This document shows positions 27,138 through 58,120 of a stretch of 64,000 nt of DNA, piece after piece (position 1 is the stretch's first letter; each line of letters opens with the position of its first letter). Both the position numbers and the translations under genes were made by a program. The notes beneath the pieces are model-generated. The model ran no database searches. It was given only the letters and a program-made list of their open reading frames with translations, and had not been told where the DNA came from. This stretch comes from Candidatus Niyogibacteria bacterium CG10_big_fil_rev_8_21_14_0_10_46_36 (GTDB lineage Bacteria; Patescibacteriota; Minisyncoccia; 1-14-0-10-42-19): the NCBI GenBank assembly GCA_002772995.1, contig PFCO01000005.1, positions 17,001 through 81,000 of the forward strand, written 5' to 3'.

Positions 27138-27139
27138 AT

Positions 27140-27990: not shown

Positions 27991-28001
27991 TTCCAACTTT
28001 T

Positions 28002-28047
28002 AAAAACAAAAACCGTCCTCGGGAACGCCGGGGCGGTTTTTGTTTTT
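28002..28047 (+). terminator. Rho-independent terminator (14-bp stem AAAAACAAAAACCG / CGGTTTTTGTTTTT)
   Basis: Perfect 14-bp inverted repeat with a GC-rich interior and a T-rich 3' arm/tail. Confidence 0.5.
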
Positions 28048-28098
28048 GTCCTCTTAAGACAATAGACAACTAATTTTCTAACAGGGTATACTAGAGAT

Positions 28099-36495: not shown

Positions 36496-36581
36496 TATTC
36501 GCCCATAATAGCATATTTATCCCCAAAAGGCAATATTTCAGGGGCCTGTTACGGAAAGGGTAAATATTGTGCGACATAAAT

Positions 36582-37526: not shown

Positions 37527-37557
37527 CACCTTGGGGCAATGCCCCAAGGTGTTTTTA
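37526..37557. terminator. Bidirectional terminator between convergent genes
   Basis: ACACCTTGGGGC-AAT-GCCCCAAGGTGT followed by TTTTTATTTTT. Confidence 0.6.
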
Positions 37558-42604: not shown

Positions 42605-43612
42605 TTACCCGCACCCGCAAATGCCAGTGTCTTCGTCCCAAATGGCATTCGGCCAAGCAGCACACACTCCATTCAAACACCCGATAGGAACTCCGCCGGC
42701 ACTGCAATTACAGCATGGTGCGAATGTATTAAAACCGCACACAAGATTGAACGGTGCAAAATCTTTATAACACCCTCCCGTAATTTCCCCAACGCCAAGC
42801 CCTCCCGCAATTCCAGCAACAGTCGCTGCCCCTCCGGTAAGATCAAAAATGAGTCCGCACCCCTGAAATATATCACCGCCTGGAGTTTGCGCATGCGCCT
42901 CTTGCGCTGAGCTCATAAAACGGAGGTACTCTATAAAACGCATAAGAGAAGCATATGTCTCTTTCTTTTCAAAAAGAGCGCTGCCGTTTTCCAAAGCTTC
43001 ATATTCAAGAAACGCACGCTCAAGAATGCTTCGTTCCTGCCCAATAAGAAGCGGGAGCTCTCCCTGCAGCGTAGAACGAAACTGTTCCGCTTGAAATAAA
43101 GAAATGTGCTGCTTTGATTCCATGTAATCCACCATATGAAGCAACAAAGAAAATATCTCTTGGTCGGTAGAGAAATTTGATCTTTCCGACTCAGACAAAA
43201 ACCCCTCGCGGATCAGAATATCTTGGAGGGTTGCCAGATATTCTTTGTATTCTGTAGGCCATACAAACGAAAATACCTCCTCATCAGTAAGCGGCCGGAG
43301 GTTCTTTTTTTTGCCCTCTTTCTCTAAAACCGGATCTTTTGAAGATTCAGGCTCCTGAAATATGCCCCCCGCATAAGAAGAAAAGCGCACCAACGGGTCA
43401 ACAAAAGTGGCTCTGAAATCATTGCTATATAAGGAAAATCCGCCCCCTTCCATTCTTTTCTCGGTATCGGACAAGAATCTTTGTGCTTGTTCTCCATCTT
43501 GGGGAGTGGGTGTGTTTGGATGCCACAAAAAAAGCAGTGAAAAGGAAATAATAAGAAATAATGCGCCTGTAACAATGCTTTTGATGAATTTTTTATCCAT
43601 TATGTTCATCAT
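42605..43612 (-). CDS. Hypothetical N-anchored protein with Gly/Cys-rich C-terminus
   Basis: TM IVTGALFLIISFSLLFLW. C-terminal GCGLIFDLTGG...GGCYKDFAPFNLVCGFNTFAPCCNCSAGGVPIGCLNGVCAAW...GICGCG. Confidence 0.4.
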   Translation of the reverse strand: MMNIMDKKFIKSIVTGALFLIISFSLLFLWHPNTPTPQDGEQAQRFLSDTEKRMEGGGFSLYSNDFRATFVDPLVRFSSYAGGIFQEPESSKDPVLEKEGKKKNLRPLTDEEVFSFVWPTEYKEYLATLQDILIREGFLSESERSNFSTDQEIFSLLLHMVDYMESKQHISLFQAEQFRSTLQGELPLLIGQERSILERAFLEYEALENGSALFEKKETYASLMRFIEYLRFMSSAQEAHAQTPGGDIFQGCGLIFDLTGGAATVAGIAGGLGVGEITGGCYKDFAPFNLVCGFNTFAPCCNCSAGGVPIGCLNGVCAAWPNAIWDEDTGICGCG

Positions 43613-43753
43613 ATCTTTCTTTTAAGCCGCCGCCAATCCGCATTCCTGCCGTACACAAGTGGAGGTTTTCCACATAAACCCATTTCCTAAGGGAAATAAG
43701 CGTTTTTCGGGTGCTATAATAAAGTAAAGAATAACATAATACATTAAACGGTT

Positions 43754-44740
43754 TTGGAACCACAATCACATAAAAACGCAATCATTATATTTCTTGCGCT
43801 CCTGCTCATTGTGGGAGGGTGGTTTTCTATATTTGAATTAAAAAATACCCAGGAAAAAGTTGCGTACTCTTCTCCGAAAGAAAAAACCGCTGAGAATGAT
43901 TCCTACATTGGGCAGGATAAGGACGGCGACGGACTTTTAGACTGGGCAGAAGAACTTTTAGGGACGGATCCGGCAAATCCGGATACTGATAATGATGGCA
44001 CACCGGACGGAGAAGAAATAACGCTCAAGAGAAACCCTCTAAAAGCAGATAACGATGCGCTCTCTCTCCCTGAGAATGATGGAAAAAGTCTTTCCGGCCT
44101 AAGTGCTCAAATCGCAGGCGGGATTGCGGGTGAATATTTGCTGCTCAAAGAAAAGGGGGGCGCAAACCAAGAAGAAATTATTAATACGCTCACCGCGCAG
44201 ATCGTATCGCGCATCAACGCAGCGGGCGCCATTGCCGATGCGTACACAGTAAAAGATATCCGGACTATTGCTTCCAGCCCCGCTGTAACGCACGCATATA
44301 TAAACGAGGTGGGCAGCATATTGAATGCGCGCTTTGCAAACATAAACACCGGTGAAATTGAATTATTAAATGCCATTATCGAGACTCAGTCATTTGATCG
44401 CTTGCAGGAATTTGATACATATGTCCGAGCTTACGAAAATGCAATGCGTGATCTCTTGGCGCTTTCCGCACCCGACTCATTTTCTTCAATGCATATCGCA
44501 CTTATAAATAATTTTTCCAATCTTTCGCGCATCAACACATCATTTGTGCAGTTTGAAACGGACCCCGCGTCCGCCCTTGTTAATCTCCGTTATTATCAAA
44601 GTGAAACAGAACGCTTCAAAATAGTTATAAAAAATATCAATGTTGTACTTGAGCAAGCCGGCGTCTTTTTTGCCGACACAGAAAACGGTTCTGTGGTGGT
44701 GGAATATTATAACGAACTTAAAAACAACGGGGCAATTTAA
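43754..44740 (+). CDS. N-anchored protein with thrombospondin-type-3-like Ca-binding repeats
   Basis: TM, then DKDGDGLLDWAEE and DTDNDGTPDGEE (DxDxDG motifs). Confidence 0.45.
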   Translation: MEPQSHKNAIIIFLALLLIVGGWFSIFELKNTQEKVAYSSPKEKTAENDSYIGQDKDGDGLLDWAEELLGTDPANPDTDNDGTPDGEEITLKRNPLKADNDALSLPENDGKSLSGLSAQIAGGIAGEYLLLKEKGGANQEEIINTLTAQIVSRINAAGAIADAYTVKDIRTIASSPAVTHAYINEVGSILNARFANINTGEIELLNAIIETQSFDRLQEFDTYVRAYENAMRDLLALSAPDSFSSMHIALINNFSNLSRINTSFVQFETDPASALVNLRYYQSETERFKIVIKNINVVLEQAGVFFADTENGSVVVEYYNELKNNGAI

Positions 44741-44744
44741 TACT

Positions 44745-46001
44745 ATGTCTGCATCTGTTAAAAAAATTATATTAAGCGCACTCATTCTCGGCATAGCCGC
44801 TCCTTTGTTCTTTTTTGCGTTACCGCAAAAGACAGAAGCAAGTGTTCCGGTACATGAAACAGCGCTCCTGAAAGAGGGACCATATGACATTGCAGCATAC
44901 ACCATAGCAAAACAGCTTTGGCGTCAGCTTATCCGTGATATTGTCGGATGGATACAAACAGGAAATATTTATGGAGGACCTCTTTTTGTCCAAAACTTTG
45001 ATGTTTTTTTTCACCAGCTTACACGTGATGGCGTCGCTATATTTATCGATAGCCTTCTTGATCCTATAACCCAAAAAAACATACCGAGCCCCTTTCGTGA
45101 CATAATCACCGAATCCGCAGTAATTACTCTCAATACATCTTCGGCAAACCTTAAATCAAGTCTAACGGGCATAGTCCCCGATGAAACTGTTTTTTATAAA
45201 GACCTTTCCGAGGGAGGAATGATTGGTTTGCGAGAAATTCTCACAACCCCGCAAAGCAGCCTTACAGGCCGCCTTCTTGTAGCGCTTGATGATGCTGACA
45301 GGCAAGCAGCCCTGGAAACACAATCAGGCAGCACCGAAATATCTTCATCCGAAGGATTTTGGGGATATGCTGACTGCATAGGATGGATAGAAGACTTCGG
45401 CAGCGGAAGGAATGTCTGTCTCGGCCGCAGTGTTAAAACGCCGGGCTCAAACGCTCAGGATCTTTTAGCGTCAGCTCTTGAGTCAGACATAGACACGCTT
45501 GAAGTAGCAGACGAACTCCAAGAAATAATTGCGGCAATCCTTGACCGGCTCATGTTCAGCATACTTGACTTCGACCTGTCAGACGCAAGCCTTGATCCGT
45601 TTAGCGGCATAGACAGAACGCCTCCAAGTGGAGGTGGAGGAAGTGGCGGAGGCAGCGGGGGCATTACTCCCCCAGCAGGAGGACAGGTGGTTGCAAATCC
45701 CGTTTGTCTCACCAACGGAACTCCTGCAATAAACATCACTTGGAGCATAGACACCGCAAATGTGGTAAACACGATTGCTGTTGTTCGTTACTGCACCGGG
45801 CAAGCATGCGTCCCCACAACATCAAGCCCTGTTGCGTGTATAAGCCCGACCTCTGCATCTTCATGCGTCCAAGACGGAATTACCTCCGGAGGCACATATA
45901 CATACAAGGTATTTGTTTATCAAACCCTGCAAGACACAAATAGCCCTCCCCTTACAACAAGTTCAAATGTATTTGCTGCTACAGCATTAACCTGTAATTA
46001 A
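44745..46001 (+). CDS. Secreted hypothetical protein (signal peptide, Gly-rich linker, Cys-containing Ser/Thr-rich C-terminal domain)
   Basis: Start trimmed to ATG 44745 (MSASVKKIILSALILGIAAPLFFFALPQKTEA). GGGGSGGGSGG linker. Confidence 0.4.
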   Translation: MSASVKKIILSALILGIAAPLFFFALPQKTEASVPVHETALLKEGPYDIAAYTIAKQLWRQLIRDIVGWIQTGNIYGGPLFVQNFDVFFHQLTRDGVAIFIDSLLDPITQKNIPSPFRDIITESAVITLNTSSANLKSSLTGIVPDETVFYKDLSEGGMIGLREILTTPQSSLTGRLLVALDDADRQAALETQSGSTEISSSEGFWGYADCIGWIEDFGSGRNVCLGRSVKTPGSNAQDLLASALESDIDTLEVADELQEIIAAILDRLMFSILDFDLSDASLDPFSGIDRTPPSGGGGSGGGSGGITPPAGGQVVANPVCLTNGTPAINITWSIDTANVVNTIAVVRYCTGQACVPTTSSPVACISPTSASSCVQDGITSGGTYTYKVFVYQTLQDTNSPPLTTSSNVFAATALTCN

Positions 46002-46003
46002 TT

Positions 46004-48259
46004 ATGCAATTCCGTCTCTCCAACATTCATTTTTTAAAATCAGCGCTGTTCGCCCTCGTGCTCTGCGGAGTCGCAATCACAGGACTTTTCTTGAGTTACT
46101 CGTATGCACACGCACAAGGTCCCATAGGGGGGACTGATCCCGGCCTTGGGATAGAACAAAAGGAATCTACCGATAAAGTAAACGATCTGGGGAAGACGCC
46201 TGATTGCGGGATAAGTAATTTTTATAAAGGGAAGTGTATCGCCCGCGGCCTTGCATGGGTAGCTCAAATATTTCTTAATGTTGTAGGATATGTTCTCATT
46301 TTTTCCGCGTTCATTTTTGACAAAGTAAAAGACATAGCGCTCAATCCGGATACATATAAAAACATAGATGTTGTTAAAAGAGGCTGGACAATGGTTCGGG
46401 ATGTTACGAACATATTTTTTATTTTTATACTTCTTGTCATTGCTATCGCCACGATTCTCCGGCGCGAATCGTATGGAGCAAAACAACTCCTCCCCCGCCT
46501 CATTCTTGTTGCCCTTTTCATCAACTTTTCTTTTACCATAACGCTATACGCCATTCTTCCCGCAAACTCCCTTGCTAATTATTTCACCACAATTATCAGA
46601 ACAAACAATAAAGGAAACTCCATAGACTACTATGCCGATTCTACTGAAGAAGTAGCCCAACACTTCATTGATGGCCTTAAGCCCGGCGAACTCGCTACAC
46701 GATTTGCGAATAGCGACCAAAAAGAAAGATATGAGCTCTTAAATTCGTCCCAAAACCAAATATTGGAAAACAGCGAAAAAGACGACCAGGCAGAACTCAA
46801 TACAGCGATTTATCTTATCATTACAATAGTTTTTGGTATTGCATTAATTCTTATGGCGGCCTTTGTGCTTTTGGTAGCAGCGCTCCTTTTCCTCATACGC
46901 ATAGCGATTCTATGGGTCTTAATGATATTTGCTCCATTGGCATTTCTGTTTATGATACTCCCCCGAACACAAAGCATTGCCCGGGAATGGTGGAGCAGAC
47001 TTATTGACCAAGCACTCTTTCCTGCAGTATTTCTCTTTTTCTTCTTCATTGTTGTATCACTTGGCGCAAGCACATATGTCAAGGACTCTATATTTAAGAT
47101 TAGCGACGGAGATCAGACCAATTTTGTTGCGTTTGTGGCGTATTATCTTATTCAGGTTATCCTTCTGTACATAAGCTTAATCGTAGCGAGGCGTATGGGC
47201 GGGTACGCGGGCAGCACCGCTATCTCTTGGGCGGGATCAGTGCGCAAATTCGCTACGGGTGCAGCTGGAGGTATTGTTGGAGGCGCGGCGGGGTATGCTG
47301 CAAGCAGAGTTGCTGAGCGTGAGGTGGCCAGACGTGGAGATGAAGGCATGGCAGAGCTTAAGACGGGCGGTGCATTCTCGCGTCTCCAAGCGCGCACCAT
47401 AGAAAAATTAGCAGCGCCTCGCGCAAAAGATACCGGGGAGTACGCAAAAAGCATGATGTCTCTTGCCCCGCGTGAATTTATGTCACGCTTCAAGGGCAGT
47501 TCTCTCGCACAGCAAAATGAAATGCTGAAGAACGAAGAAGCAATCAAACGCCTTGCAAAAGCGCGCGACGCAGACAGCACAAGCGCCCAAGACAAGGCTC
47601 ATATAGACTCAATACTTAAACGGCAAAGCTACCAAACGCAAACGAAGTTCTTTAAAGAAGCACCGAAGGCATTTGCTGAAAAACTTGTAAATAACGAGAT
47701 ACGGAAAGATACAAGAGAAGAGGTTCTTAAGACCGCAGACAAGGAAACAATGCAAAAGATAGGAAAAGCAATGGTTGGCATTGATGCCGAAGAAACAAGC
47801 GCTTTGTTTGAATCAATGCAAAAAGAAGGGCTGAAGAAACAATCAAAGGACATGGCAAGCGTCTTACCACAATTCTATCAGGAGGCCGGGATGGAAATTG
47901 GACAAGCGATACGAAATATTGATTTTGAAAAGGTGGATAAAAAAGTTCTTGAAAGTCTTCACGACACACAAACAAAGAATGGCCCCGTGCTCAACAACCC
48001 CTTGGCTCGTTACACAACCCCCGCCCAACGCCAAAAGCTATTAAGCGAATTTACAGAAGCAGGAGAAATCTACTCCAAGGAAATGAAAAGTCTTGGGGAC
48101 ACGAGTAAACAAGTCGCGGCACAAATCAGAAGTGCCGGCGATGCCGCATCCGCAAACAAATTTGAAAATGATAAAGTGTTTGCTGGAGCGCATGGATTAC
48201 ATTCGGAAGACAAAACGCCCTCATATAAATCAACGGACGTAAGCGGAGAAGCAAAATAA
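46004..48259 (+). CDS. VirB6/TrbL-like polytopic membrane protein with long hydrophilic C-terminal tail
   Basis: Signal-like N-terminus, at least 6 TM segments (e.g. LIITIVFGIALILMAAFVLLVAALLFLIRIAILWVLMIFAPLAFLFMIL), then a charged tail of roughly 300 aa. Confidence 0.5.
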   Translation: MQFRLSNIHFLKSALFALVLCGVAITGLFLSYSYAHAQGPIGGTDPGLGIEQKESTDKVNDLGKTPDCGISNFYKGKCIARGLAWVAQIFLNVVGYVLIFSAFIFDKVKDIALNPDTYKNIDVVKRGWTMVRDVTNIFFIFILLVIAIATILRRESYGAKQLLPRLILVALFINFSFTITLYAILPANSLANYFTTIIRTNNKGNSIDYYADSTEEVAQHFIDGLKPGELATRFANSDQKERYELLNSSQNQILENSEKDDQAELNTAIYLIITIVFGIALILMAAFVLLVAALLFLIRIAILWVLMIFAPLAFLFMILPRTQSIAREWWSRLIDQALFPAVFLFFFFIVVSLGASTYVKDSIFKISDGDQTNFVAFVAYYLIQVILLYISLIVARRMGGYAGSTAISWAGSVRKFATGAAGGIVGGAAGYAASRVAEREVARRGDEGMAELKTGGAFSRLQARTIEKLAAPRAKDTGEYAKSMMSLAPREFMSRFKGSSLAQQNEMLKNEEAIKRLAKARDADSTSAQDKAHIDSILKRQSYQTQTKFFKEAPKAFAEKLVNNEIRKDTREEVLKTADKETMQKIGKAMVGIDAEETSALFESMQKEGLKKQSKDMASVLPQFYQEAGMEIGQAIRNIDFEKVDKKVLESLHDTQTKNGPVLNNPLARYTTPAQRQKLLSEFTEAGEIYSKEMKSLGDTSKQVAAQIRSAGDAASANKFENDKVFAGAHGLHSEDKTPSYKSTDVSGEAK

Positions 48260-48272
48260 AAAATACACACAT

Positions 48273-49169
48273 ATGAACATAACGCCTGAAGAAATCCAAA
48301 AACGATTCAAAGCGCTCCCCGAAGCGTTGCGGGAAGCGATATTTTCTGCAGAAATTTCAGAAACGCTTCTTGCAATTGGGAAAAAATACAACCTCCCCCT
48401 CGACAAGGTGGGCGAGCTTTCAACGGAGACGAGTCTTGTCATGCTCGGCGTCACTCACCCGAATCAGTACATATCAAACTTACAAAAAGTGCTCGGCGTA
48501 GAGCGCGATATCGCGCGCAATATCGCCCAAGAAGTAAACGCGCAAATATTTGCAAAAATACGGAGCGAATTAAAAACACTCCACAAGATCACAGAAAACG
48601 AAGACGCTCCCGAAAAAGCCGCCGCTTCTAAGCCCCCTGCAATGGAACCAGCCAGAGCTCCGGAGCCGGAAAAAACATCTCCGCCATCCTCCATAAAGCC
48701 ATTTGGTCACTGGGATCTTCCCCCTGTTCCGCCACCTGCAAAAAAAACATACACCTTCTCTGAACTCCAGAAAAAACAGGAAGAACAAAAACAAACACCG
48801 CCGCCCTCAACAACACTTTCAGAGAAACAACCGGCAGTCCCTTCTGTCTTGAAAAAACCATCAGAACAAAGCCTATCTAAGCCTCCTATGCCCTCGCAGA
48901 TGCCAAAAACGCATATAGAAGAGCCCCGAGACGAGCCGGCTATTCTTCAAAAGCCGGAAGAACACACACCCAAAGCGCCTTCTCCGTTTGAGGCAAAGAT
49001 ACAAGATCCGGTGTTTCATCAACAACCGTCCGAAGTAACAAAAGACGGAAAGAAAGACGCTTCTCCAAATACGACAACGAAGCCATCCGCTCATGATCCA
49101 TATCGAGAGCCCATACTTCCTGAGGAAGCGTCGTTTAATATCAATCCTCATATCAAGAAAGATGAGTAA
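48273..49169 (+). CDS. Hypothetical protein with helical N-domain and Pro-rich disordered tail
   Basis: N-terminal about 110 aa structured; the rest is P/E/K/S-rich. Confidence 0.4.
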   Translation: MNITPEEIQKRFKALPEALREAIFSAEISETLLAIGKKYNLPLDKVGELSTETSLVMLGVTHPNQYISNLQKVLGVERDIARNIAQEVNAQIFAKIRSELKTLHKITENEDAPEKAAASKPPAMEPARAPEPEKTSPPSSIKPFGHWDLPPVPPPAKKTYTFSELQKKQEEQKQTPPPSTTLSEKQPAVPSVLKKPSEQSLSKPPMPSQMPKTHIEEPRDEPAILQKPEEHTPKAPSPFEAKIQDPVFHQQPSEVTKDGKKDASPNTTTKPSAHDPYREPILPEEASFNINPHIKKDE

Positions 49170-49186
49170 TGTAACCTTTCATATGT

Positions 49187-49648
49187 ATGCGACGATTCCA
49201 AGTGCCACAATTTATTGAGGTAGAAGACAAGCTTTTCGGACCTCTCACGCTAAAACAATTTATCTATATCCTTGGAGGGGTGGCGATTACTTTTATTCTT
49301 TGGGTGTCTCTTCCGCTGTTTGTAACAATAATTCTCGGGGTGCCCATTATGGCATTCTCTCTCGGTCTTGCGTTCTATAAAGTGAATGGCGAATCGCTTA
49401 TTACCATTCTCTCACACGGCATCCAGTATCTTTCCCGCTCCCGCCTGTACATCTGGCGTAAAGAGGAAAAAAAGAGGAAAAAACCAAAAGAAGAAATCCT
49501 CCGCAAATCAAAACAAGGACTGGTAACGGTTCCGCGCGGACAAAAAGAAAGCGGACTCTCTAATCTTTCGTGGAGTCTCGATGTGCAAAAGAACTTAAAA
49601 GCAGAGCGCAATATCCCGCAGCCGTTTGAGCTGCGCAATAAAAAATAA
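49187..49648 (+). CDS. PrgI/VirB3-like small membrane protein
   Basis: QVPQFIEVEDKLFGPLTLKQFIYILGGVAITFILW followed by two TM segments. Its position immediately upstream of VirB4 is as seen for PrgI-family proteins. Confidence 0.5.
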   Translation: MRRFQVPQFIEVEDKLFGPLTLKQFIYILGGVAITFILWVSLPLFVTIILGVPIMAFSLGLAFYKVNGESLITILSHGIQYLSRSRLYIWRKEEKKRKKPKEEILRKSKQGLVTVPRGQKESGLSNLSWSLDVQKNLKAERNIPQPFELRNKK

Positions 49649-49649
49649 C

Positions 49650-50342
49650 ATGGAAACACCAGCAGTAAAAAAAAGCAGAGCGGCGCAAAACTTTGTCCCA
49701 CTTCAGGAAATACGGGACGGTATTGCGATTACCAAAGACAAGTCCATGCATGTGGTGCTGATGGCTTCTTCGCTTAACTTTGCGCTCAAGTCCGTGGACG
49801 AACAAGATGCGATTATCTCTCAATATCAAAACCTTTTAAATTCGCTTGATTTTTCTATCCAATTTTTTATTCAGTCCCGAAAACTGGATATTGAGCCGTA
49901 CTTGGACACGCTTCGCGAAGCACTACAGGGCCAATCAAACGAGCTTATAAAAATACAAACCCGGGAATATATTGAATTCGTAAAAAACTTTGTGCAAGCG
50001 GCAAACATCGTTTCAAAGACATTCTATGTTGTCGCTTCATATGTCCCCCCTCTCATTAAGACGAAACGGGGCGGAATGTTGGGGCAGTTTGCTGATATAT
50101 TCAAAAGAAACAAAGAAGACAAAGAGCACTACATTCCGGACGAAGAGTTTGAAGAATACAAAATCCAGCTCTGGCAACGGGTCAATTCTGTAGCAACGGG
50201 ACTCGGGCGCACTGGTGTGCGCGTCGTCCCGCTAAACACCGAGGAGCTCATTGAGCTTTATTATAGCTTGTTTAATCCGGGAGAGATTGAGCGCGGAGGA
50301 ACGCCTCACATAGAAACATCATTAGGAGACGGAGAAGTATAG
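49650..50342 (+). CDS. VirB4 N-terminal-domain-like protein (possible split VirB4 part 1)
   Basis: IAITKDKSMHVVLMASSLNFALKSVDEQDAIISQYQNLLNSLDFSIQFFIQ resembles the extreme N-terminus of Gram-positive VirB4/TraE proteins. ATG at 49650 lies just after the PrgI-like stop. Confidence 0.4.
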   Translation: METPAVKKSRAAQNFVPLQEIRDGIAITKDKSMHVVLMASSLNFALKSVDEQDAIISQYQNLLNSLDFSIQFFIQSRKLDIEPYLDTLREALQGQSNELIKIQTREYIEFVKNFVQAANIVSKTFYVVASYVPPLIKTKRGGMLGQFADIFKRNKEDKEHYIPDEEFEEYKIQLWQRVNSVATGLGRTGVRVVPLNTEELIELYYSLFNPGEIERGGTPHIETSLGDGEV

Positions 50343-50449
50343 CCTGTCCCGCTAGAAATCTCTCGCAAAGAGCCCCACGAGGACAAAACAAATTACAATA
50401 TTATTTTATGAGACATTATTATTTTCAAAGAATAAATTTCTAACGGGAT

Positions 50450-52276
50450 ATGGTGTTCGGATTTGGAAAAAAGAAAAAAGAAGAAAAGGATGATATCCTT
50501 GCAATATTCCCGGAACAAATCTACGAAACGGGCCTTTTGGAATTACGCGACGTTATCGCTCCCTCCGCTCTTGAGATAAGTTCAAATTTCGTTAAATTGG
50601 GGGAGAAATTTACACGCACAATCTACGTGTTTTCATACCCGCGCTTTTTATCGGTGAATTGGTTCTCCCCTGTTATCAACCTTGACCGTGTTTTTGATGT
50701 AGCGCTTTTCGTTCACCCCATAGATACCGCGGAGGTTTTACGCCAGCTCCAAAAGAAAGTTGCCGAGGTTCAGTCTCAGATTCATATCAGAGAAGAAAAA
50801 GGATTTGTGCGCGACCCTGTACTTGATACCGCATACGGCGACCTTGAAACGCTCCGGGATAAATTACAACAAGCGCAAGAACACTTATTCTCTTTCGGTT
50901 TATATATAACGCTTTACGCAGATTCCATTGAAGAGCTGAATAAAACGGAATCAGAAGTCCGTTCTCTTTTAGAATCAAAGCTTGTGTATACAAAACCTGC
51001 GCTCTTCCGCCAGGAACAGGGGCTTGTTGCGGTTTTCCCATTCGGCTCCGACCAGCTCGAAGTAAACTCGCGCCTGAACTCCTCTCCCCTTTCAAGCATC
51101 TTCCCATTCGTGTCTTTTGATCTTACCTCAAATCGCGGCGTACTATATGGTGTAAACCGGCACAACAACAGCTTGGTGCTATTCGACCGATACAGCCTTG
51201 AAAACTACAATTCCGTTATCTTTGGAAAGGCTGGCGGAGGAAAAAGTTATGCAACCAAGCTTGAGGTGCTCCGAGCGCTCATGTTTGAGGGGGAGGTTAT
51301 TGTAATCGACCCTGAACGCGAGTATGAATACCTTGCCGAAACAACCGACGGAAGATATTTTAATATTTCTCTCTCCTCAAACCACCACATTAACCCGTTT
51401 GACCTTCCTGTCCCGCAGGAAGACGAATCTACCGCTGAGATATTGCGAGAGCACATCATTAATCTTATCGGGCTTTTTCGTATTATGATGGGGGGATTAA
51501 GTCCGCAAGAAGACGCTATTTTAGACCAGGCAATCACCGAAACATACGCCTCGCGCGACATCACCGCAGAATCAGATCTTGCGGGCGTCATTCCTCCGAC
51601 ACTCTCCGACCTTGAGCTCATTCTGGCAAACATGGAAGGAGGCGAATCCCTTGCGATGCGCCTGCGCAAATATACTCAAGGAACATGGGCGGACTTCATC
51701 AACAAACCGACAAATGTGGATATCAACAAAAAAATGGTGGTATTTTCCGTCCGAGACATGTCTGACGAACTCCGGCCGGTTGCCATCTATCTTATCGTGC
51801 ACCATATATGGAATGTCATCCGAAGAAACCTCAAAAAACGCCTTCTCGTAGTGGATGAGGCGTGGTGGATTATGAAAGAAGAAGATGGCGCATCATTCTT
51901 ATTCGGTATCGCAAAACGGGCGCGTAAGTATTACCTGGGAGTAGCAACTGTAACCCAAGATGTGGGCGATTTTTTGCGCTCTCCTTATGGCATACCCATC
52001 ATCACCAACTCTTCCATGCAGCTTTTATTGAAACAGTCTCCCGCAACAATAGACCTTGTGCAGGAAACCTTTAACCTTACCGAGGAAGAGAAGTTCCTCC
52101 TCTTAGAAGCGGAGGTGGGAGAGGGTATCTTTTTTGCGGGTCTCAAGCATGTCGCAATCAAAATTATTGCGTCTTACACCGAAGACCAAATCATTACATC
52201 AGACCCCGCTCAGCTCCTCGCAATCAAAAAAGCGAAGCAAGAATTTAAAAGCACCCAAGGGGAAAGTAACTCATAA
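50450..52276 (+). CDS. VirB4/TraE-type conjugative-transfer-like ATPase
   Basis: IAPSALEISSNFVKLGEKFTRTIYVFSYP, Walker A GKAGGGKSYATK, VIVIDPEREY, Walker B LLVVDEAWWI (DEAW). Confidence 0.75.
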   Translation: MVFGFGKKKKEEKDDILAIFPEQIYETGLLELRDVIAPSALEISSNFVKLGEKFTRTIYVFSYPRFLSVNWFSPVINLDRVFDVALFVHPIDTAEVLRQLQKKVAEVQSQIHIREEKGFVRDPVLDTAYGDLETLRDKLQQAQEHLFSFGLYITLYADSIEELNKTESEVRSLLESKLVYTKPALFRQEQGLVAVFPFGSDQLEVNSRLNSSPLSSIFPFVSFDLTSNRGVLYGVNRHNNSLVLFDRYSLENYNSVIFGKAGGGKSYATKLEVLRALMFEGEVIVIDPEREYEYLAETTDGRYFNISLSSNHHINPFDLPVPQEDESTAEILREHIINLIGLFRIMMGGLSPQEDAILDQAITETYASRDITAESDLAGVIPPTLSDLELILANMEGGESLAMRLRKYTQGTWADFINKPTNVDINKKMVVFSVRDMSDELRPVAIYLIVHHIWNVIRRNLKKRLLVVDEAWWIMKEEDGASFLFGIAKRARKYYLGVATVTQDVGDFLRSPYGIPIITNSSMQLLLKQSPATIDLVQETFNLTEEEKFLLLEAEVGEGIFFAGLKHVAIKIIASYTEDQIITSDPAQLLAIKKAKQEFKSTQGESNS

Positions 52277-52281
52277 TCCCT

Positions 52282-52770
52282 ATGGCAGAAGAGAACACCA
52301 TTGAACAGGCGCGGTCACTTGCTCTTCAAGAAAGGCGCGCAGAACAAAAAAAGGAACAAGAAAAAAAAAGAGAGGTTCAAAAGATAATGCGCCAAATCAA
52401 CGCTATTAAAGATTCTTTGCCTCCGAAAATAAACCTCACAGAATCAATATCAATGGTCGGATTTGCCTTAATTTCCGATATTGTTGATTGGCTAGTCATT
52501 GGCTCAATACCTATCCTGGGTGATATACTAGACATAGTGACATGGATGATCGTAGGTTTCTGGATGTGGTGGCGTAAACTAAAGCGTGCACCTGGAAGCA
52601 TTGAGGCGGGCATTATAGAATTGATACCGGTTGCTGATATTCTGCCGACATGGACCGCAATAGTTGTTCTTTCTATACTATATAACAATCACAAGCGCGC
52701 CCAGGCAGCAGGCGAGATTAAAAAACTGCACGCTCTCCAAAAACAAGCACAAGCCATAGCCGCGTCTTGA
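52282..52770 (+). CDS. Small membrane protein (charged N-term coiled region + 3 TM)
   Basis: 162 aa with hydrophobic segments ISMVGFALISDIVDWLVIGSIPILG, IVTWMIVGFWMWW, ILPTWTAIVVLSILY. Confidence 0.4.
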   Translation: MAEENTIEQARSLALQERRAEQKKEQEKKREVQKIMRQINAIKDSLPPKINLTESISMVGFALISDIVDWLVIGSIPILGDILDIVTWMIVGFWMWWRKLKRAPGSIEAGIIELIPVADILPTWTAIVVLSILYNNHKRAQAAGEIKKLHALQKQAQAIAAS

Positions 52771-52782
52771 TACATCTTATCA

Positions 52783-53757
52783 ATGAGCATAAAAAAAACA
52801 TTTCCTATACTATGTGCGGCACTTTTTCTTTTGTACACAGCCGCAGCCGCCCAGACCACAAAAGAAGGTACCGCCACAATAATACTGAACCCGCTTTCCC
52901 CCGGTCCAGATGAAGAGGTCACCGCAGAACTCCGCGGTTTTAGTTTTGATATCAATGCGTCCTTTATTACATGGACAAGAAACGGCAGCATATCGCTTTC
53001 AGGGACAGGCTCAAAATCATTCAAGTTCCGCACTGGAGCAATAGGAAAAAAAGAGGTTATAAGTGCAACCGCCCGCACCATTGACGGGAAAGAGATAACC
53101 GCAACCACAGAATTTCTTTTGGGTGATGTTGACCTCTTATGGAAAGCAGACACGACAATCCCCCCGGAATATAAAGGGAAAGCGCTTCCAAGCCCATTTT
53201 CTTCAATAGCCGTTGTCGCTATTCCTCATTTTTCTTCGGGAGGATTTACGAGCTCCGTGAGCGACCTGGAATTTGAGTGGCTCCTTGACGGAAAACGGGA
53301 CGAATCCGCGTCTGGCACCGGAAAAAACACTTATCGCTTTACCGCAGGCGCGTCCCCCACAAATCAGGAAATAACGGCCAAAGTAAAAAATAACGAAAAG
53401 GATATCTCATTTGAAAAAAGCGTATTCATTCCCGTGCACCAACCAGAAGTATTTTTATACGAGGAGCGCCCCTTAGAAGGACCGTTTATGAATGTCGCCC
53501 TATCCCAAAAAACGCTCCACTCAAGTGAAATAAAGGCGTTTCGGGCGGTTCCCTATTTTTTTCCTGAAGAAGATACGCAGTCTCTCTCCTATACGTGGTC
53601 CCAAAATGGAGAAGAAAAAAAGACTTCACCTGTTCATATATTCCAATTTTCATCTGAAAAATCGGGACGCCAAACAATAACGCTCGAGGTGCTTATCCAA
53701 AATACAAAGCACACCATTCAAAAAGCATTAGCAAAAATTGCCATCAATGTTCAATAA
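52783..53757 (+). CDS. Secreted protein with repeated beta-rich modules
   Basis: Signal peptide ...AAAQT. Internal repeat of roughly 100 aa (…RTGAIGKKEVISATARTIDGKEITAT… / …RFTAGASPTNQEITAKVKNNEKDISF…). Confidence 0.4.
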   Translation: MSIKKTFPILCAALFLLYTAAAAQTTKEGTATIILNPLSPGPDEEVTAELRGFSFDINASFITWTRNGSISLSGTGSKSFKFRTGAIGKKEVISATARTIDGKEITATTEFLLGDVDLLWKADTTIPPEYKGKALPSPFSSIAVVAIPHFSSGGFTSSVSDLEFEWLLDGKRDESASGTGKNTYRFTAGASPTNQEITAKVKNNEKDISFEKSVFIPVHQPEVFLYEERPLEGPFMNVALSQKTLHSSEIKAFRAVPYFFPEEDTQSLSYTWSQNGEEKKTSPVHIFQFSSEKSGRQTITLEVLIQNTKHTIQKALAKIAINVQ

Positions 53758-54814
53758 GTGTTTTTATATATTTTTCATAGTGACGTTAATTGTTTTTGCT
53801 CAGCCAGCATTTGCTAGAGAGGTGTGGGTTTGCACGACTCCAATTGGGGGAACAACCGTATTTCTTCAACAAGACTTATGCGCAACGCAATGTAACGGTT
53901 CATGTGCGCAGTCGACTGTTCCCGACAACAATACAACCATTGAAATTTGTCCTATAGACGGGTCGGCATACCCACCCAACCCTACGAACCCGCTCGAGAG
54001 CTGTGCGGCGGCCTGTGGGGCATCGTGCACACAGGCGTCTGTCCCGGGGAGCGCTGGGGGAGCGGACACGCCTACTATTGGGGGGTCTTCTTCATCAAAC
54101 GATGGCGGCGCGCTTTTTATACAATTTTTAAACTGGCTTTTCCCCGCACTTCTTTCTATCGCAGCGCTCCTCGCGTTTGTGATGATCGTGTTTGCGGGAT
54201 TTAAGTGGATTGCCGCTGCAGGAAACCCCGCAGCAATAGAGGATGCGAAAGACATGATAATCAAAGCTGTTTTGGGACTTATCCTCGCCTTCATGTCCTG
54301 GCTTGTTTTAAACACCATCAATCCTAATCTCGTCGGGGGAGGGCTCCCTGGAGGCGGAGGCTTAAACCCCCCGGAGAACGAACAGCCAAACCCTCCCGGC
54401 AACAACCAAGACAACCCCCCTACACCAGGGACGCTTACTGACGAAGAGGCACGAAGCCAGCTTAACGCTGCCGGGATACAGGTAACATCAAGCGGAGGCT
54501 GCAGTGACCAACAAAACCCATCCTGCACATCACTTGAAGGCATACCGGCCTCTACCGTACAAAGCCTTATTTCAATTAAACAGCAATGCGGATGCTCCAT
54601 TACGATAACCGGAGGCACGGAGGTGGGACACCAAACACACGGACCGGGAAAGCCCATAGTTGACCTTTCTTTTAACGAGCCGCTTGCAAGCTATCTGCAC
54701 GATAATGCGTCATCCCTCGGCATAAGCACCATATGTACTGCGCCACAAGATGCCCAATATCGGCATAATTGCAATTTTAACGAGAGCTCACGCCATCTTC
54801 ATGTTTCATTTTAA
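53738..54814 (+). CDS. Tripartite protein: Cys-rich secreted N-domain + VirB2/TrbC-like hairpin + C-terminal putative Zn-peptidase (M15/hedgehog-DD-peptidase-like) domain
   Basis: Signal peptide and a Cys-rich region paralogous to the 24881 protein. Hairpin FIQFLNWLFPALLSIAALLAFVMIVFAGFKWIAAAGNPAAIEDAKDMIIKAVLGLILAFMSWLVL. The C-terminus has SITITGG...GHQTHGPGKPIVDLSF ... HLHVSF, which is H..G...D-like; this assignment is tentative. Confidence 0.45.
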   Translation: MPSMFNKCFYIFFIVTLIVFAQPAFAREVWVCTTPIGGTTVFLQQDLCATQCNGSCAQSTVPDNNTTIEICPIDGSAYPPNPTNPLESCAAACGASCTQASVPGSAGGADTPTIGGSSSSNDGGALFIQFLNWLFPALLSIAALLAFVMIVFAGFKWIAAAGNPAAIEDAKDMIIKAVLGLILAFMSWLVLNTINPNLVGGGLPGGGGLNPPENEQPNPPGNNQDNPPTPGTLTDEEARSQLNAAGIQVTSSGGCSDQQNPSCTSLEGIPASTVQSLISIKQQCGCSITITGGTEVGHQTHGPGKPIVDLSFNEPLASYLHDNASSLGISTICTAPQDAQYRHNCNFNESSRHLHVSF

Positions 54815-54816
54815 TT

Positions 54817-55962
54817 ATGTCTAAACCGCTCGCCATCGGACTCATCATACTTTTTATAGGCATTATTGCTATCGGTATTGTTTTGCTAGCGTCCCAAAAC
54901 GGCCCGGGAAATGTGCAGGCTCCAGAACCAAACAATCAAGGCTCATCCTTCCCGCAATCACAAACACAAAACCCTCCCCCAACATCAAGCGGCATTCTGC
55001 CGTCTGAACGAGATCTGATTAAAATAACAAACGGAGCAATAAGCGGATTTACGCCTGCTACTGCGGGGGTGCGTTTCATAGAAAAAACAACCGGCCATGT
55101 ATTTGATTCCTCCGCTGACGGACAAACGCAAATAAAAATATCCAACACAACCATCCCTCAAAGTATTGATGCGCTCTGGTCAGAAAATGAAAATTACGCC
55201 ATTTTGCGCTACCGGGAAAACGAAGAAATAAAAACGGTTTTATCGCAGTTCGGAAACTCAAAAACTGACGGGGTTATTCTTCCCACAGACATCCTTTCTT
55301 TTTCATACGCACCGGAGCGTCTTCGTGTGTTTTACACCGTTCCGGGAGACAATGACATCATCGGCATAGCGGCAAGCACCGACAACACCGCTCAAACTCA
55401 AGTTGTCCGCCTCCCTGACACAAATTTTGTCGTTGAGTGGTACAGCCCCCGGGAAATCTCTTTTCTTACTCCCCCATCCGCATTCGCCGCAGGTTTTTTA
55501 TACCGATACAATATTGATGTCGGCTCATTTGAGAAACTATTAGGCAATATACCGGGACTTGATATTGCGTGGTCCAAGAATAAGCGACGAATATTGTTTT
55601 CGCAATCAAACGCGGGAACAGGAAAATCAAATCTCTTCGTGTTTAATCTGCAAACAGGGACGGTTGAGGATCTGGGGACAGAGGGACTCGCGCAAAAATG
55701 CGTATGGGAAGACGACATCGTTGTGTATTGCGGTATACCAACAACAATGTCCCGCGGCTCATACCCGGATGATTGGTTCTCGGGCTCCGTTACATTGAAC
55801 GATCGTATTTGGTGGATAAATACAAGCTCATTCGAAAAAACGATAGTAAAAACACTTCCCGATATTGATGTGGCAGAAATACGCATAAGCGACGCGGCGG
55901 ATCATCTGTTCCTCACAAACAAAAAAGACGGCACACTGTGGAGCGTGCACCTTAACGAATAA
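54817..55962 (+). CDS. N-anchored hypothetical protein (beta-propeller-like extracellular domain)
   Basis: TM LAIGLIILFIGIIAIGIVLLA, then about 340 aa of beta-rich sequence with W/Y-containing repeats. Confidence 0.4.
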   Translation: MSKPLAIGLIILFIGIIAIGIVLLASQNGPGNVQAPEPNNQGSSFPQSQTQNPPPTSSGILPSERDLIKITNGAISGFTPATAGVRFIEKTTGHVFDSSADGQTQIKISNTTIPQSIDALWSENENYAILRYRENEEIKTVLSQFGNSKTDGVILPTDILSFSYAPERLRVFYTVPGDNDIIGIAASTDNTAQTQVVRLPDTNFVVEWYSPREISFLTPPSAFAAGFLYRYNIDVGSFEKLLGNIPGLDIAWSKNKRRILFSQSNAGTGKSNLFVFNLQTGTVEDLGTEGLAQKCVWEDDIVVYCGIPTTMSRGSYPDDWFSGSVTLNDRIWWINTSSFEKTIVKTLPDIDVAEIRISDAADHLFLTNKKDGTLWSVHLNE

Positions 55963-55974
55963 CTGGCACAATCA

Positions 55975-56004
55975 AAAAACCCGCGCGAGCACGCGCGGGT
56001 TTTT
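55975..56004. terminator. Strong bidirectional rho-independent terminator
   Basis: AAAAA-CCCGCGCG-AGCA-CGCGCGGG-TTTTT. Confidence 0.7.
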
Positions 56005-56012
56005 AATAGTTA

Positions 56013-56486
56013 TCAAATTGGCTTTATAACAACATACCGATATTCTCCTTCCCCCCTGCTTTCCGTTGCGATATCCGGATACTCCATAAGTGCCGTATGA
56101 ATAATACGCCTCTCAAAAGGAGACATGGGCTTCATCTCAAGCTCCTTTTTAAAATAGCGAACTCGTTGCGCAGACATCCGCGCAAGCTCATACAACTGGT
56201 CTGCTTTTTGTTTGTTATAGTCATTTACATCAACAACAAACTGCATCCGTTCTTTTTGTTCTTCCGGACTAAATCCAGTCTCTCTATCAACAATGCGGCG
56301 CATAACATGATTTATAGCACGCAGATGCGCTCCATTTTCCCCGATAAGAATAGCGGCATCAGAACTTTTTACATTAAATTTGAGCCCATCCAAATATTCC
56401 ACGGCATCCAAAGACGCCGTAACGCCCATCTTTTCGATAAGCGTATGTAATAAAAAAGAAATTTTTTCTTGTGCTTCTTTATCCAT
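56013..56486 (-). CDS. jag: Jag/KhpB (R3H-domain RNA-binding protein)
   Basis: Start at MDKEAQ (ATG 56486) with GGAG upstream. C-terminal R3H: FERRIIHTALMEYPDIATESRGEGEYRYVVI. Confidence 0.75.
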   Translation of the reverse strand: MDKEAQEKISFLLHTLIEKMGVTASLDAVEYLDGLKFNVKSSDAAILIGENGAHLRAINHVMRRIVDRETGFSPEEQKERMQFVVDVNDYNKQKADQLYELARMSAQRVRYFKKELEMKPMSPFERRIIHTALMEYPDIATESRGEGEYRYVVIKPI

Positions 56487-56508
56487 TGTGCTCCGGTGCT
56501 GGAGAGGA

Positions 56509-57243
56509 TTATTGGTTCTCGGGAGCCAGAGCAAACGATTTTTTTCTCACAACACCTTCGTGTAGGATAGCAAAAACATTGGACGTTGTCCAATAGAGTG
56601 CGAGCGCTGCAGGAAAACGTAATGATATCAGAATAATAAATATAGGAAAGATATACTTCGCCTGGCTCATGAATCGCTTTGTCATGTCTTCAGGAGAGCT
56701 CGCCCCCGCTTTTTCTGTGTTGGGAGGGATGGCAAGCTTCATTTGTATAAACTGTGAAAGCCCCGCAAGGATAGCAACAATAAGGCTGGCCTCTGTAAGA
56801 TTTACGAGGGAAAGGAATTGAACATTTATCTTTTCGGGGAGAGCAATAAAAGAATATAGTAAATGTGCCGAATCAGAAATAGATTTAATGAATACCTGGT
56901 ACAGAGCAATGAGCACGGGGAACTGAATAATAAGCATGAGACATCCGGAAAACGGCGAAACACCATGCTGTTTGTATAATTCCATTGTTTTCTGAGCAAT
57001 CTCCTGTTGATTATTCTTATGTTTTTCTCGTATTTTTTTAATTTCTGGCTCAATCTCTCTTATTTTTATTTGGGTAACAATAGAACGATGAGTAAAAGGA
57101 AAAATAACAAACCGAACCAACACAGTAAGAACAATTACCGCAAGCCCCAGATCATGAAGAGGCATCAGGCCGGTAAGAAATACAAGCGCATTGAAGAGCG
57201 GCTGAAAAAAGAAATCGTTATAGATAGAAAGAAGAAATCCCAT
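56509..57243 (-). CDS. yidC: Membrane protein insertase YidC (short Oxa1-type)
   Basis: LAVIVLTVLVRFVIFPFTHRSIVTQIK...LYKQHGVSPFSGCLMLIIQFPVLIALY. Confidence 0.85.
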   Translation of the reverse strand: MGFLLSIYNDFFFQPLFNALVFLTGLMPLHDLGLAVIVLTVLVRFVIFPFTHRSIVTQIKIREIEPEIKKIREKHKNNQQEIAQKTMELYKQHGVSPFSGCLMLIIQFPVLIALYQVFIKSISDSAHLLYSFIALPEKINVQFLSLVNLTEASLIVAILAGLSQFIQMKLAIPPNTEKAGASSPEDMTKRFMSQAKYIFPIFIILISLRFPAALALYWTTSNVFAILHEGVVRKKSFALAPENQ

Positions 57244-57251
57244 GGTATGTA

Positions 57252-57479
57252 TTATGGAAGAGGGTCATGCCCTCCTTTTGAAAACGGATGGCAGCGAAAC
57301 ACTCTTCTTGTGGTATAAAAAAAAGCCTTAAAAAAACCGAAACGCTGAAACGCCTCAAGGCCATACTCAGAACAAGACGGAAAAAAGCGGCATGACGGCG
57401 TCCGCTTTATAAATATATTTTTGTCAGGAGAAAGGATTTTTTGATAGAGAGCAATGCTCTGCCGAACAACACTATTCAT
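57252..57479 (-). CDS. yidD: Membrane protein insertion efficiency factor YidD
   Basis: SIALYQKILSPDK...CRFFPSCSEYGLEAFQRFG...HPFSKGGHDPLP. Confidence 0.85.
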   Translation of the reverse strand: MNSVVRQSIALYQKILSPDKNIFIKRTPSCRFFPSCSEYGLEAFQRFGFFKAFFYTTRRVFRCHPFSKGGHDPLP

Positions 57480-57813
57480 ATAACAGGGATTGTTTTTTCA
57501 AAACATATAATACTGCGTCTTCTATATCCTGTCTTTTACGAAACTGCTTTTGAAAAACAATAATAATATCATACCCCTTTTTGATGGAAGAGACAAAACG
57601 AAACAGGATATCTTTTGTTTTTCTGCGCATGGTGTTGCGGGTAACGCTTTTTTTTGCAACCTTAGAAGATATCACCACAGCAAAGCGCGGGCGGGGTTTG
57701 TTATTCTTCTTATAATATAAAGTAATGCCACTTCCTTTTTCTCTTTTCCCGCGCACGAAAACAAGCTTCACCTCATACGAGGAAAGACGATATTCATGAG
57801 GGAGAGCGCTCAT
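57472..57813 (-). CDS. rnpA: Ribonuclease P protein component
   Basis: Start chosen at ATG 57813 (MSALPHEYRLSSYEV...); the track's 57828 start is TTG. K/R-rich RnpA motifs (RLRFAVVISSKVAKKSVTRNTMRR). Confidence 0.8.
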   Translation of the reverse strand: MSALPHEYRLSSYEVKLVFVRGKREKGSGITLYYKKNNKPRPRFAVVISSKVAKKSVTRNTMRRKTKDILFRFVSSIKKGYDIIIVFQKQFRKRQDIEDAVLYVLKKQSLLYE

Positions 57814-57820
57814 ATGTCCT

Positions 57821-57958
57821 TTAGACAACTACTCTTTTCCGCCCTTTCTGCCTTCTTCTGCGAACAACATTCCTTCCTGCCGTCGTGCTTTTTCTCTTTA
57901 AAAATCCGTGAGACCTCTTTCTCTTCCTTTTTTTGGGTTGATAGGTTCGTTTTGGCAT
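57821..57958 (-). CDS. rpmH: 50S ribosomal protein L34
   Basis: Manual minus-strand translation gives [45 protein letters not shown]. The ORF track omits it because it is shorter than 60 aa. Confidence 0.85.
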
Positions 57959-58120
57959 GTGTTTCTTACTTTACCACAGAATTTTATATTTACAATATTA
58001 ACAGCTCATCCACAGATTGTTAACATAAGTAGTAACCTTATCGGGGTTTCTTTATAAAAAACTGCGGGTGCTATAATACCATTATATCTATTCTTTTTTT
58101 TATTCTAAACAGACCTGCTT

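Follow-up and report, generated by a model that had tools for sequence, protein, structure and literature searches.

What is a type IV secretion system (T4SS) for in a bacterium of reduced genome when no relaxase or coupling protein is encoded beside it? The question is raised by a cluster of eleven genes at 43754-55962 (+ strand) in a 64-kb stretch, hereafter the window, of contig PFCO01000005.1 from Candidatus Niyogibacteria bacterium CG10_big_fil_rev_8_21_14_0_10_46_36. The original prediction had suggested a DNA-uptake or host-attachment apparatus rather than a conjugation system, a view that is supported here and agrees with Wang et al. (2023; PMC10633639), with the part of Quinonero-Coronel et al. 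(2025; PMC12102498) drawn on here, and with a 2025 review (PMC12857230). The locus is an ordinary, intact member of the published Paceibacteria T4SS arrangement, a system already known, probably of importance to epibiotic life, for which the same components, the absence of a relaxase and the proximity to dnaA have been described (PMC10633639; PMC12102498, in part). The probability that it is a Patescibacterial T4SS with a non-conjugative role at the host interface is put at about 0.8, the direction of transport not being included in that figure. The system very probably derives from monoderm conjugation machinery (MPF_FATA class) that has been put to non-conjugative use. The non-conjugative reading is adopted because no relaxase or type IV coupling protein (T4CP) family occurs among the sizeable open reading frames (ORFs) of the window and no att-like or oriT-like repeats were found in it.

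Much of bacterial diversity belongs to the Patescibacteria, which are unable to make nucleotides, lipids or most amino acids. Hardly any of their machines have been shown to be indispensable for growth on a host; the T4SS is among those few, the demonstration having been made in one Saccharibacterium. This locus opens no new way into the question of its cargo. The added value of the locus is modest and consists of a fuller parts list for one lineage (a two-ORF VirB4, pilin-anchored predicted peptidase and lysozyme-like domains, a propeller, an Ig-repeat protein and a distant pilin array), to which may be added the higher conservation of VirB4 than of DnaA throughout the class.

The VirB4 ATPase and its membrane partners

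The eleven co-directional ORFs, numbered g01 to g11, all lie where they had been predicted, and the same eleven genes are found in public gene calls on identical contigs (three other data sources), which refine the starts of g06 to 49650 (230 amino acids, aa) and of g10 to 53747 (355 aa). All eleven are intact, and they are spaced by anything from an 11-nt overlap to a 17-nt gap, with the exception of 107 nt 5' of virB4. The tight packing claimed for the cluster is thus borne out by the ORF coordinates and by independent gene calls. Protein entries under the locus tags COU47_02390, COU47_02395 and COU47_02430 (block COU47_02390-02430) are 100% identical to the window proteins. The suspicion of a reduced-genome organism belonging to the candidate phyla radiation (CPR) was correct, the proteins being identical to those of Candidatus Niyogibacteria and the closest VirB4 relatives being Patescibacteria.

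The gene g07 (50450-52276, +) encodes a VirB4 ATPase of MPF_FATA-like type (CD1110 family). Its product matches the NCBIfam profile NF045971 (CD1110-family VirB4) at 9.8e-106 and 354.7 bits, above the cutoff of 325, over positions 182-733 of 752, and it is matched by the Pfam families P-loop_TraG, AAA_10 and CagE_TrbE_VirB. The solved VirB4 domain of Thermoanaerobacter (4AG5) is matched at 1.4e-42 and TrwK at 1.4e-5, and the Walker A (GKAGGGKS, at residue 259) and Walker B (LLVVDEAW, at 465) motifs are intact. Of the curated families, the Firmicutes CD1110 family (above cutoff) and the VirB4 family of Mycoplasma integrative conjugative elements (ICEs) score best; CedB gives a weak, partial match (1.6e-11) that is far under cutoff. 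The VirB4 call had been staked beforehand on such searches, and it passes the curated profile thresholds (NF045971, Pfam, 4AG5).

The preceding gene, g06 (49650-50342, +), encodes a TrsD/TraC-like protein, a probable equivalent of the N-terminal segment of VirB4 encoded on its own. As predicted, it resembles the VirB4 N-terminus, matching NF045975 at positions 97-232 (5e-9) and NF045971 at positions 2-118 (6e-6). The TrsD model itself gives only 0.078, a TraC-like match (PF26593) is listed in public gene calls, and the g06 profile found no match in the PDB. Since g06 matches N-terminal positions of the same VirB4 profiles, the two proteins appear to make up one VirB4, the 752 positions of NF045971 being tiled by g06 (2-118) and g07 (182-733). 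By these matches g06 is taken to correspond to the component named 'TrsD' in PMC12102498 (in part). Related loci were drawn from the best 80 species-level genome matches to VirB4; g06 and virB4 are separate ORFs in 76 of 76 of them, in all three frame relations and with variable spacing. A frameshifted or pseudogenised VirB4 was rejected on these grounds.

Three further genes encode membrane proteins. The product of g05 (49187-49648, +) is a small PrgI/VirB3-like protein with two transmembrane (TM) segments; it lies above the Pfam gathering score, as had been expected of it (PF12666, 7e-9, 36.6 bits, gathering score 27), and has a counterpart in 73 of the 80 loci. The gene g03 (46004-48259, +) encodes an extended VirB6/TrbL-like polytopic protein in which seven TM-like segments are followed by a hydrophilic tail of ~350 aa. 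Direct Pfam assignment of g03 to TrbL failed and was rescued through homologues only, 29 of 54 of which match Pfam TrbL/VirB6 (PF04610, best 3.5e-10). Precomputed annotation records a weak TrbL_3 match (PF19590), and a CD3337/EF1877 mobilome membrane protein is matched weakly (6e-7). The long-tailed VirB6/TrbL-like protein of the original prediction is therefore upheld through its family and its TM-like segments, and it agrees with the 'extended VirB6' type of PMC12857230. The third, g08 (52282-52770, +), encodes a small protein that has a coiled coil at its N-terminus and three TM-like segments; profile searches gave no family match for it. In 42 of 68 loci virB4 is followed by a positional counterpart, and many of these counterparts have an 'IP..LP.WT'-like motif. 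A VirB8 candidate was sought among g01, g02, g08 and g11 and none emerged, g01 consisting of TSP3 repeats with a helical domain and g11 of a beta-propeller.

Pilins, wall hydrolases and surface proteins

The T4SS_pilin domain (PF18895) occurs in six proteins of the window. One is encoded within the cluster by g10 (53747-54814, +), which joins a Cys-rich N-region and a VirB2-like pilin hairpin (36.7 bits, cutoff 26.6) to a C-terminal domain with a predicted LAS-type zinc-peptidase fold. In the C-domain E292, H295, H298, D306, H350 and H352 are nearly invariant among 82 homologues, and the AlphaFold model is confident (predicted local distance difference test, pLDDT, > 90). The domain carries the H-x(n)-D ... 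H-x-H metal-binding triad on the Hedgehog/DD-peptidase fold (LAS: MepA, VanX/DD-peptidases, Hedgehog N-domain); phmmer found no match to it among PDB sequences. Because of the near-invariant residues and the confident model the domain is assigned the LAS fold, and it is predicted to be a putative cell-wall endopeptidase. A pilin/peptidoglycan-hydrolase fusion, which had been called from the sequence, is accordingly supported by both the hairpin match and the predicted fold. More than 100 proteins of this LAS-fusion kind exist in public data. The fusion was rejected as a general feature of the related loci, the LAS motif being carried by one of 23 positional homologues of g10 and in 3 of the 80 loci.

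The other five pilin-domain proteins are encoded at a second T4SS-related locus ~16 kb upstream of the cluster (24881-28434, +). Its 446-aa protein (24881-26221, +) contains a Cys-rich region, a VirB2-like hairpin (PF18895, 3.5e-8) and a predicted lysozyme-like SLT_3 domain that may provide a VirB1-like function. The family of this C-domain has 633 relatives; among those aligned, 22 of 24 match SLT_3 (PF18896, 5.8e-13) and 4 match SLT, and the protein contains the motif 'AESAG...SWGLFQIN' in a copy that is sub-threshold for SLT_3. Neither phmmer nor the family profile found a match to the C-domain in the PDB. An anchored 170-aa protein (26272-26784, +; TM segment at residues 3-21) has no family match. 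A tandem array of four small VirB2-like pilin genes completes the locus (26781-27137, 27140-27508, 27634-27990 and 28099-28434, all +); their products have a signal peptide and two TM helices and match PF18895 at 1.7e-7 to 1.3e-12 and TrbC/VirB2 (PF04956) at 5.5e-7 and 1.1e-5. The array is variable in sequence. The parts list drawn up previously holds for the components inside the cluster and was incomplete as a whole, the main VirB2-like pilins and the lysozyme-like fusion lying at this upstream locus.

Four cluster proteins are secreted or anchored at the surface. The first gene, g01 (43754-44740, +), encodes a membrane-anchored protein (TM segment at residues 9-27) with calcium-binding TSP3 repeats (TSP3_bac, PF18884, 1.7e-7) and a helical C-terminal domain, as the earlier description of an anchored protein with Ca-binding repeats had it. 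Its D-x-D-x-D motifs are invariant across 28 orthologues, solved structures match the repeats and not the remainder, and the gene is syntenic in 33 loci. The secreted or anchored product of g02 (44745-46001, +) has a conserved N-domain and a Cys-rich C-terminal beta-sandwich. It found no family in Pfam, NCBIfam or a PDB profile search, and a homologue search returned 8 proteins only; the AlphaFold2 model (pLDDT 48) is confident for residues 312-418 alone, which form the beta-sandwich, and the gene is syntenic in 32 loci. The gene g09 (52783-53757, +) encodes a protein with a signal-like N-terminus and three tandem repeats that are probably Ig-like, judging from an invariant W...G.G pattern that recurs at residues 64/74/76, 166/178/180 and 272 and from a weak match (E = 0.014) to the Ig-like Hoc protein; a counterpart is found in 69 of the 80 loci. 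The last gene, g11 (54817-55962, +), encodes a membrane-anchored TolB-like beta-propeller (TM segment at residues 5-23); the assignment comes from a profile built on 29 orthologues, which finds TolB propellers at 3e-8 to 1e-6, and 58 of the 80 loci have a counterpart.

The remaining protein, encoded by g04 (48273-49169, +), is soluble, with no TM segment predicted and no family match. A conserved N-domain of ~105 aa and a C-terminal DPYREPI motif, which might be a docking motif, are kept in 29 aligned orthologues, and the Pro-rich linker between them is highly variable in length and sequence. The statement that most components have no recognisable family was overstated, since a family or fold could be given to 7 of the 11 proteins; beyond these, g02 and g09 have a partial or weak domain assignment only.

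With so many pilins at hand, the apparatus might do nothing but assemble pili for adhesion, VirB4, VirB3 and VirB6 polymerising VirB2-like pilins with no transport at all. The six pilin-domain proteins, the sequence variability of the array, the absence of a coupling protein and the presence of adhesin-like partners (TSP3 repeats, Ig-like repeats, a propeller) all speak for this, as does the essentiality of pilin arrays in Southlakia epibionticum (PMC10633639). Adhesion is already mediated in Patescibacteria by type IV pili, however (PMC12102498 and PMC11623550, each in part), and the median identity of VirB4, 71% and above that of DnaA, suggests, although this is a weak argument, more than the assembly of an adhesin. 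An apparatus for adhesion only is judged quite improbable.

Chromosomal setting and conservation

Relatives of VirB4 were found in at least 80 species-level genomes at 67-94% identity, and among the matches listed all are Patescibacteria/Parcubacteria or unclassified metagenome-assembled genomes. The order UvrD-KsgA-[g01..g11]-Jag-YidC-RnpA-RpmH|DnaA-DnaN is kept across dozens of Paceibacteria species, and UvrD-KsgA-[g01..g11]-Jag-YidC-DnaA-DnaN-PBP1 recurs in Giovannoni-, Niyogi-, Kaiser-, Sung-, Campbell- and Nomurabacteria and others. The gene order of the cluster is shared with the published Paceibacteria arrangement, the comparison with CPR T4SS loci that had been proposed. In each of the 39 loci where dnaA was found (39 of 39) it lies downstream of virB4 on the same strand, and among 47 loci with enough flank it does so at a distance of 3.6-7.5 kb in 37. 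The gene ksgA is upstream of virB4 in 32 of 42 loci. Median identity to the window proteins across the related loci is 50% for DnaA (58121-59485 in the window) and 36% for DnaN, so that VirB4, at the value given above, is more conserved across Paceibacteria than these neighbouring replication proteins. The conserved block order with its housekeeping flanks argues for a vertically inherited origin-side locus and not a mobile element, and by these alignments the locus is a vertically inherited core feature under strong constraint.

Genes for conjugation were looked for throughout the window. Outside the cluster the Pfam scan covered 34 larger ORFs, including every ORF of > 190 aa in the 64 kb, the remainder being < 190 aa. 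No relaxase family was found among these 34, although a very divergent relaxase could escape such profiles, and no VirD4/TcpA-type coupling protein was found among them or the cluster ORFs. A repeat search of the window returned no att-like or oriT-like repeats, flanking direct repeats and oriT-like inverted repeats included. The claim that no VirD4, relaxase or oriT-like repeat is visible is in this way extended to the whole 64 kb, and inspection of the flanks for an adjacent conjugative module (relaxase, VirD4, oriT, or an integrase with att sites) likewise found none there.

An ordinary or decayed ICE, with its relaxase and coupling protein lost or lying outside the window, can hardly explain the locus. 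The VirB4 family is typical of Firmicutes conjugative elements, and a tyrosine recombinase gene was located by Pfam scan at 36567-37526. The recombinase is Xer-like, however, and is separated from the cluster by four genes (encoding an M23 peptidase, UvrD, KsgA and a protein without assigned family). Many Paceibacteria species keep the same gene order together with the housekeeping genes to either side, the G+C content of the cluster is that of its surroundings, no direct repeats flank it, and the eleven ORFs are intact with VirB4 strongly constrained. A mobile element was rejected on synteny, composition and the absence of repeats, and may be regarded as already close to refuted.

Sizeable ORFs outside the cluster are housekeeping genes, are related to T4SS pilins (24881-28434) or have no family match. 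The neighbours recognised in the window are a Lon-like protease, MurD, IF-2, an Mfd-like helicase, S1 and ClpB, and further GyrA, PolA, PNPase, the Xer-like recombinase, the M23 peptidase, UvrD and KsgA. On the far side of the cluster lies a jag-yidC-yidD-rnpA-rpmH block (56013-58023, -; yidD at 57252-57479, rpmH at 57821-57958, 45 aa), canonical for the origin side, and dnaA, dnaN and a PBP1 gene are found beyond it. An ORF on the + strand at 57796-58023 that overlaps rpmH is probably spurious. The G+C content is 0.44-0.49 in the cluster, like the surrounding genome, and 0.37-0.40 in the downstream origin-side region, and the minimum of cumulative GC skew falls near 58-60 kb. On account of the drop in G+C and the skew minimum, the cluster probably ends ~2 kb from the origin (rpmH/dnaA region). 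The 12-kb cluster is transcribed towards this probable origin; with + strand GC skew negative left of ~60 kb, the operon would be head-on to replication.

The cluster is closed by a strong terminator, as had been stated. A hairpin at 55974-56004, between the convergent g11 and jag, has the form AAAAAA-CCCGCGCG-AGCA-CGCGCGGG-TTTTT, that is, A6, a perfect hairpin with an 8-bp G+C stem and AGCA loop, and T5; it is a bidirectional intrinsic terminator that can act on both strands. At the other end a possible extended -10 promoter element, TGcTATAAT (43712-43720, +), can be read from the sequence 34 nt upstream of g01. It is weak evidence, the element being absent from the list of a consensus promoter scan because there is no good -35 element. 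An Rfam scan of the window found five tRNAs, none of them at the cluster, and no riboswitch or small RNA at the cluster; the tRNA genes (+) are Ser-CGA at 4631-4717 and Cys-GCA, Leu-TAA, Leu-TAG and Gly-GCC clustered at 7418-7882.

Several other genes of the window may be recorded. Divergent from the cluster, 42605-43612 (-) encodes a protein of 335 aa that is secreted or anchored and whose Gly/Cys-rich C-terminus ends in CGCG; no family was matched, and only 3 of 80 related loci have it. An 879-aa Lon-like protease (616-3255, +) has LonB/LonC-type AAA and helical domains and not the classical LonA architecture. Three proteins encoded on the - strand are a secreted protein of 312 aa with a coiled coil and a weak apolipoprotein-like match (12119-13057) and, without informative family match, a 315-aa anchored protein (32460-33407) and a 216-aa probable lipoprotein (37555-38205). 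Some 8 kb upstream of the cluster lies the PNPase gene (33422-35584, -); according to a preprint of 2026, PNPase and VirB4 are linked in this phylum with a lifestyle of feeding on host RNA.

Role at the host interface and comparison with known systems

If the locus is a non-conjugative T4SS working at the host interface, VirB4 (with its split-off N-domain protein g06), VirB3 and VirB6 would assemble a pilus or tube of VirB2-like type. The wall, either the cell's own or that of the host, would be opened by the hydrolase domains anchored on pilin-like hairpins, and the pilus or tube would pass through this opening, its assembly powered by VirB4. The surface proteins g01 (Ca-binding), g02, g09 (Ig-like) and g11 (TolB-like) could scaffold or tip the structure where it contacts the host, and the whole would form a conduit between epibiont and host.

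The direction of transport is tentatively, and at somewhat short of even odds, taken to be import of host macromolecules such as RNA or DNA. Import is favoured because there is no coupling protein for cytoplasmic cargo, nucleotide synthesis is lacking and ComEC competence is dispensable where the T4SS is essential. Patescibacteria without nucleotide, lipid and amino-acid synthesis are described in PMC12102498 (in part), and in S. epibionticum ComEC-dependent competence is separate and non-essential (PMC12857230). Put in its fullest form, the T4SS would run in reverse as a feeding tube, pilins whose relatives bear wall-cutting domains breaching the host envelope and VirB4/TrsD/VirB3/VirB6 pulling in host RNA or DNA; this version is doubtful. 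The idea has been proposed in outline by others, with uptake as the favoured speculation (PMC12102498, in part; PMC12857230), and a 2026 preprint (10.64898/2026.06.21.733656) reports host-RNA uptake by a cultivated member and, where it meets the host, tubular structures that may be T4SS pili.

The machine might instead work outwards and translocate effectors, like the T4CP-less Ptl and Brucella VirB systems, delivering proteins by injection or release into the host cell or onto its envelope and so manipulating or lysing the host. Wang et al. wrote that the Saccharibacteria system 'may instead export proteins' (PMC10633639), protein-exporting T4SSs without a T4CP exist (PMC12102498, in part; PMC12857230), and the Sec-type secreted or anchored proteins g01, g02, g09 and g11 are accompanied by hydrolase fusions that might attack the wall of a host. 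The same proteins, however, bear Sec-type N-termini for which no T4SS is needed, the window holds no candidate effector and no coupling protein for cytoplasmic substrates, and the biosynthetic gaps in nucleotides, lipids and amino acids argue for acquisition (PMC12102498, in part). Export is unlikely on balance.

Several points weigh against a non-conjugative host-interface T4SS as set out here. The window's own g03 falls under the Pfam TrbL thresholds and owes its assignment to homologues, and the SLT_3-like domain of the 446-aa protein is likewise under the Pfam threshold and assigned via relatives. No cluster protein matches the VirB8, PrgL or TcpC families in Pfam or NCBIfam. The LAS fusion is lineage-specific and hence not core to the mechanism. 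The 459-kb contig might carry a coupling-protein gene outside the window. Essentiality has been shown in one Saccharibacterium only.

Among known systems, the conjugative T4SSs of the MPF_FATA class (pGO1 Trs, pCF10 Prg, C. difficile CTn2/CD1110, the Mycoplasma ICE) share with this locus a CD1110-family VirB4 and PrgI, a TrsD-like split-off N-terminal protein as in pGO1, a PrgH/VirB6-like membrane protein and paired predicted glycosidase and peptidase wall-degrading activities, as in PrgK/TraG. In contrast to them, the locus is without relaxase, T4CP and oriT within the 64-kb window and is chromosomal, syntenic and vertically inherited. It also has VirB2-like pilins, which Gram-positive systems lack, its hydrolase domains sit on pilin-like hairpins, the peptidase is predicted to have the LAS fold and not CHAP, and no VirB8-like protein was recognised in the cluster.

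Helicobacter ComB and archaeal Ced function with neither a relaxase nor a VirD4-type coupling protein. Both move macromolecules inward, and they resemble this locus in lacking those two proteins and in the weak match between g07 and CedB; beyond the shared ATPase fold there is no specific homology. Bordetella Ptl and Brucella VirB are T4SSs that likewise function without a coupling protein, but they belong to the MPF_T systems of diderms, have a VirB7/9/10 core and secrete known toxins or effectors.

The closest comparison is with the T4SS of the Patescibacteria clade. In S. epibionticum the homologous locus SEML1_0006-0019 is essential for epibiotic growth by transposon sequencing (Tn-seq), with essential pilins (arrays) and without recognisable coupling protein and relaxase (PMC10633639). 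The survey of 3,035 Patescibacteria genomes (PMC12102498, in the part drawn on here) describes a monophyletic Patescibacteria VirB4 clade nested in MPF_FATA, with TrsD, PrgI/VirB3, VirB6 and VirB2-like pilins (PF18895), including arrays, adjacent to virB4. According to the same part, VirB8 is scarce in Patescibacteria, VirB1-like hydrolases are associated with virB4 mainly in Paceibacteria, relaxases occur in only 103 genomes, T4CP genes are rarely adjacent and VirD4-like genes are present in most genomes, far from virB4. It also gives proximity of virB4 to dnaA, dnaN, rnpA, ksgA and rpmH and lists other Niyogibacteria assemblies as VirB4-positive. Such systems have been called newcomers to the T4SS superfamily, for which a conduit for uptake is speculated (PMC12857230).

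The locus described here differs from this clade in nothing fundamental. It has VirB4 with an adjacent TrsD-like ORF, PrgI/VirB3, VirB6, PF18895 pilins including arrays, and predicted wall hydrolases nearby; it has no relaxase and no adjacent coupling protein; and it is a chromosomal, monoderm-type system without an outer-membrane core, beside dnaA, dnaN, rnpA, rpmH and ksgA. What is added here is the locus at 24881-28434, with its four pilins and predicted pilin-lysozyme (SLT_3) fusion, the TolB-like propeller g11 and the three probably Ig-like repeats of g09. Set against the part of PMC12102498 drawn on here, the details particular to this lineage or not itemised there are the predicted LAS peptidase on the pilin hairpin of g10, the TolB-like g11, the Ig-like g09, the TSP3 repeats of g01 and the position of the pilin array, ~16 kb away from the cluster and not within it.

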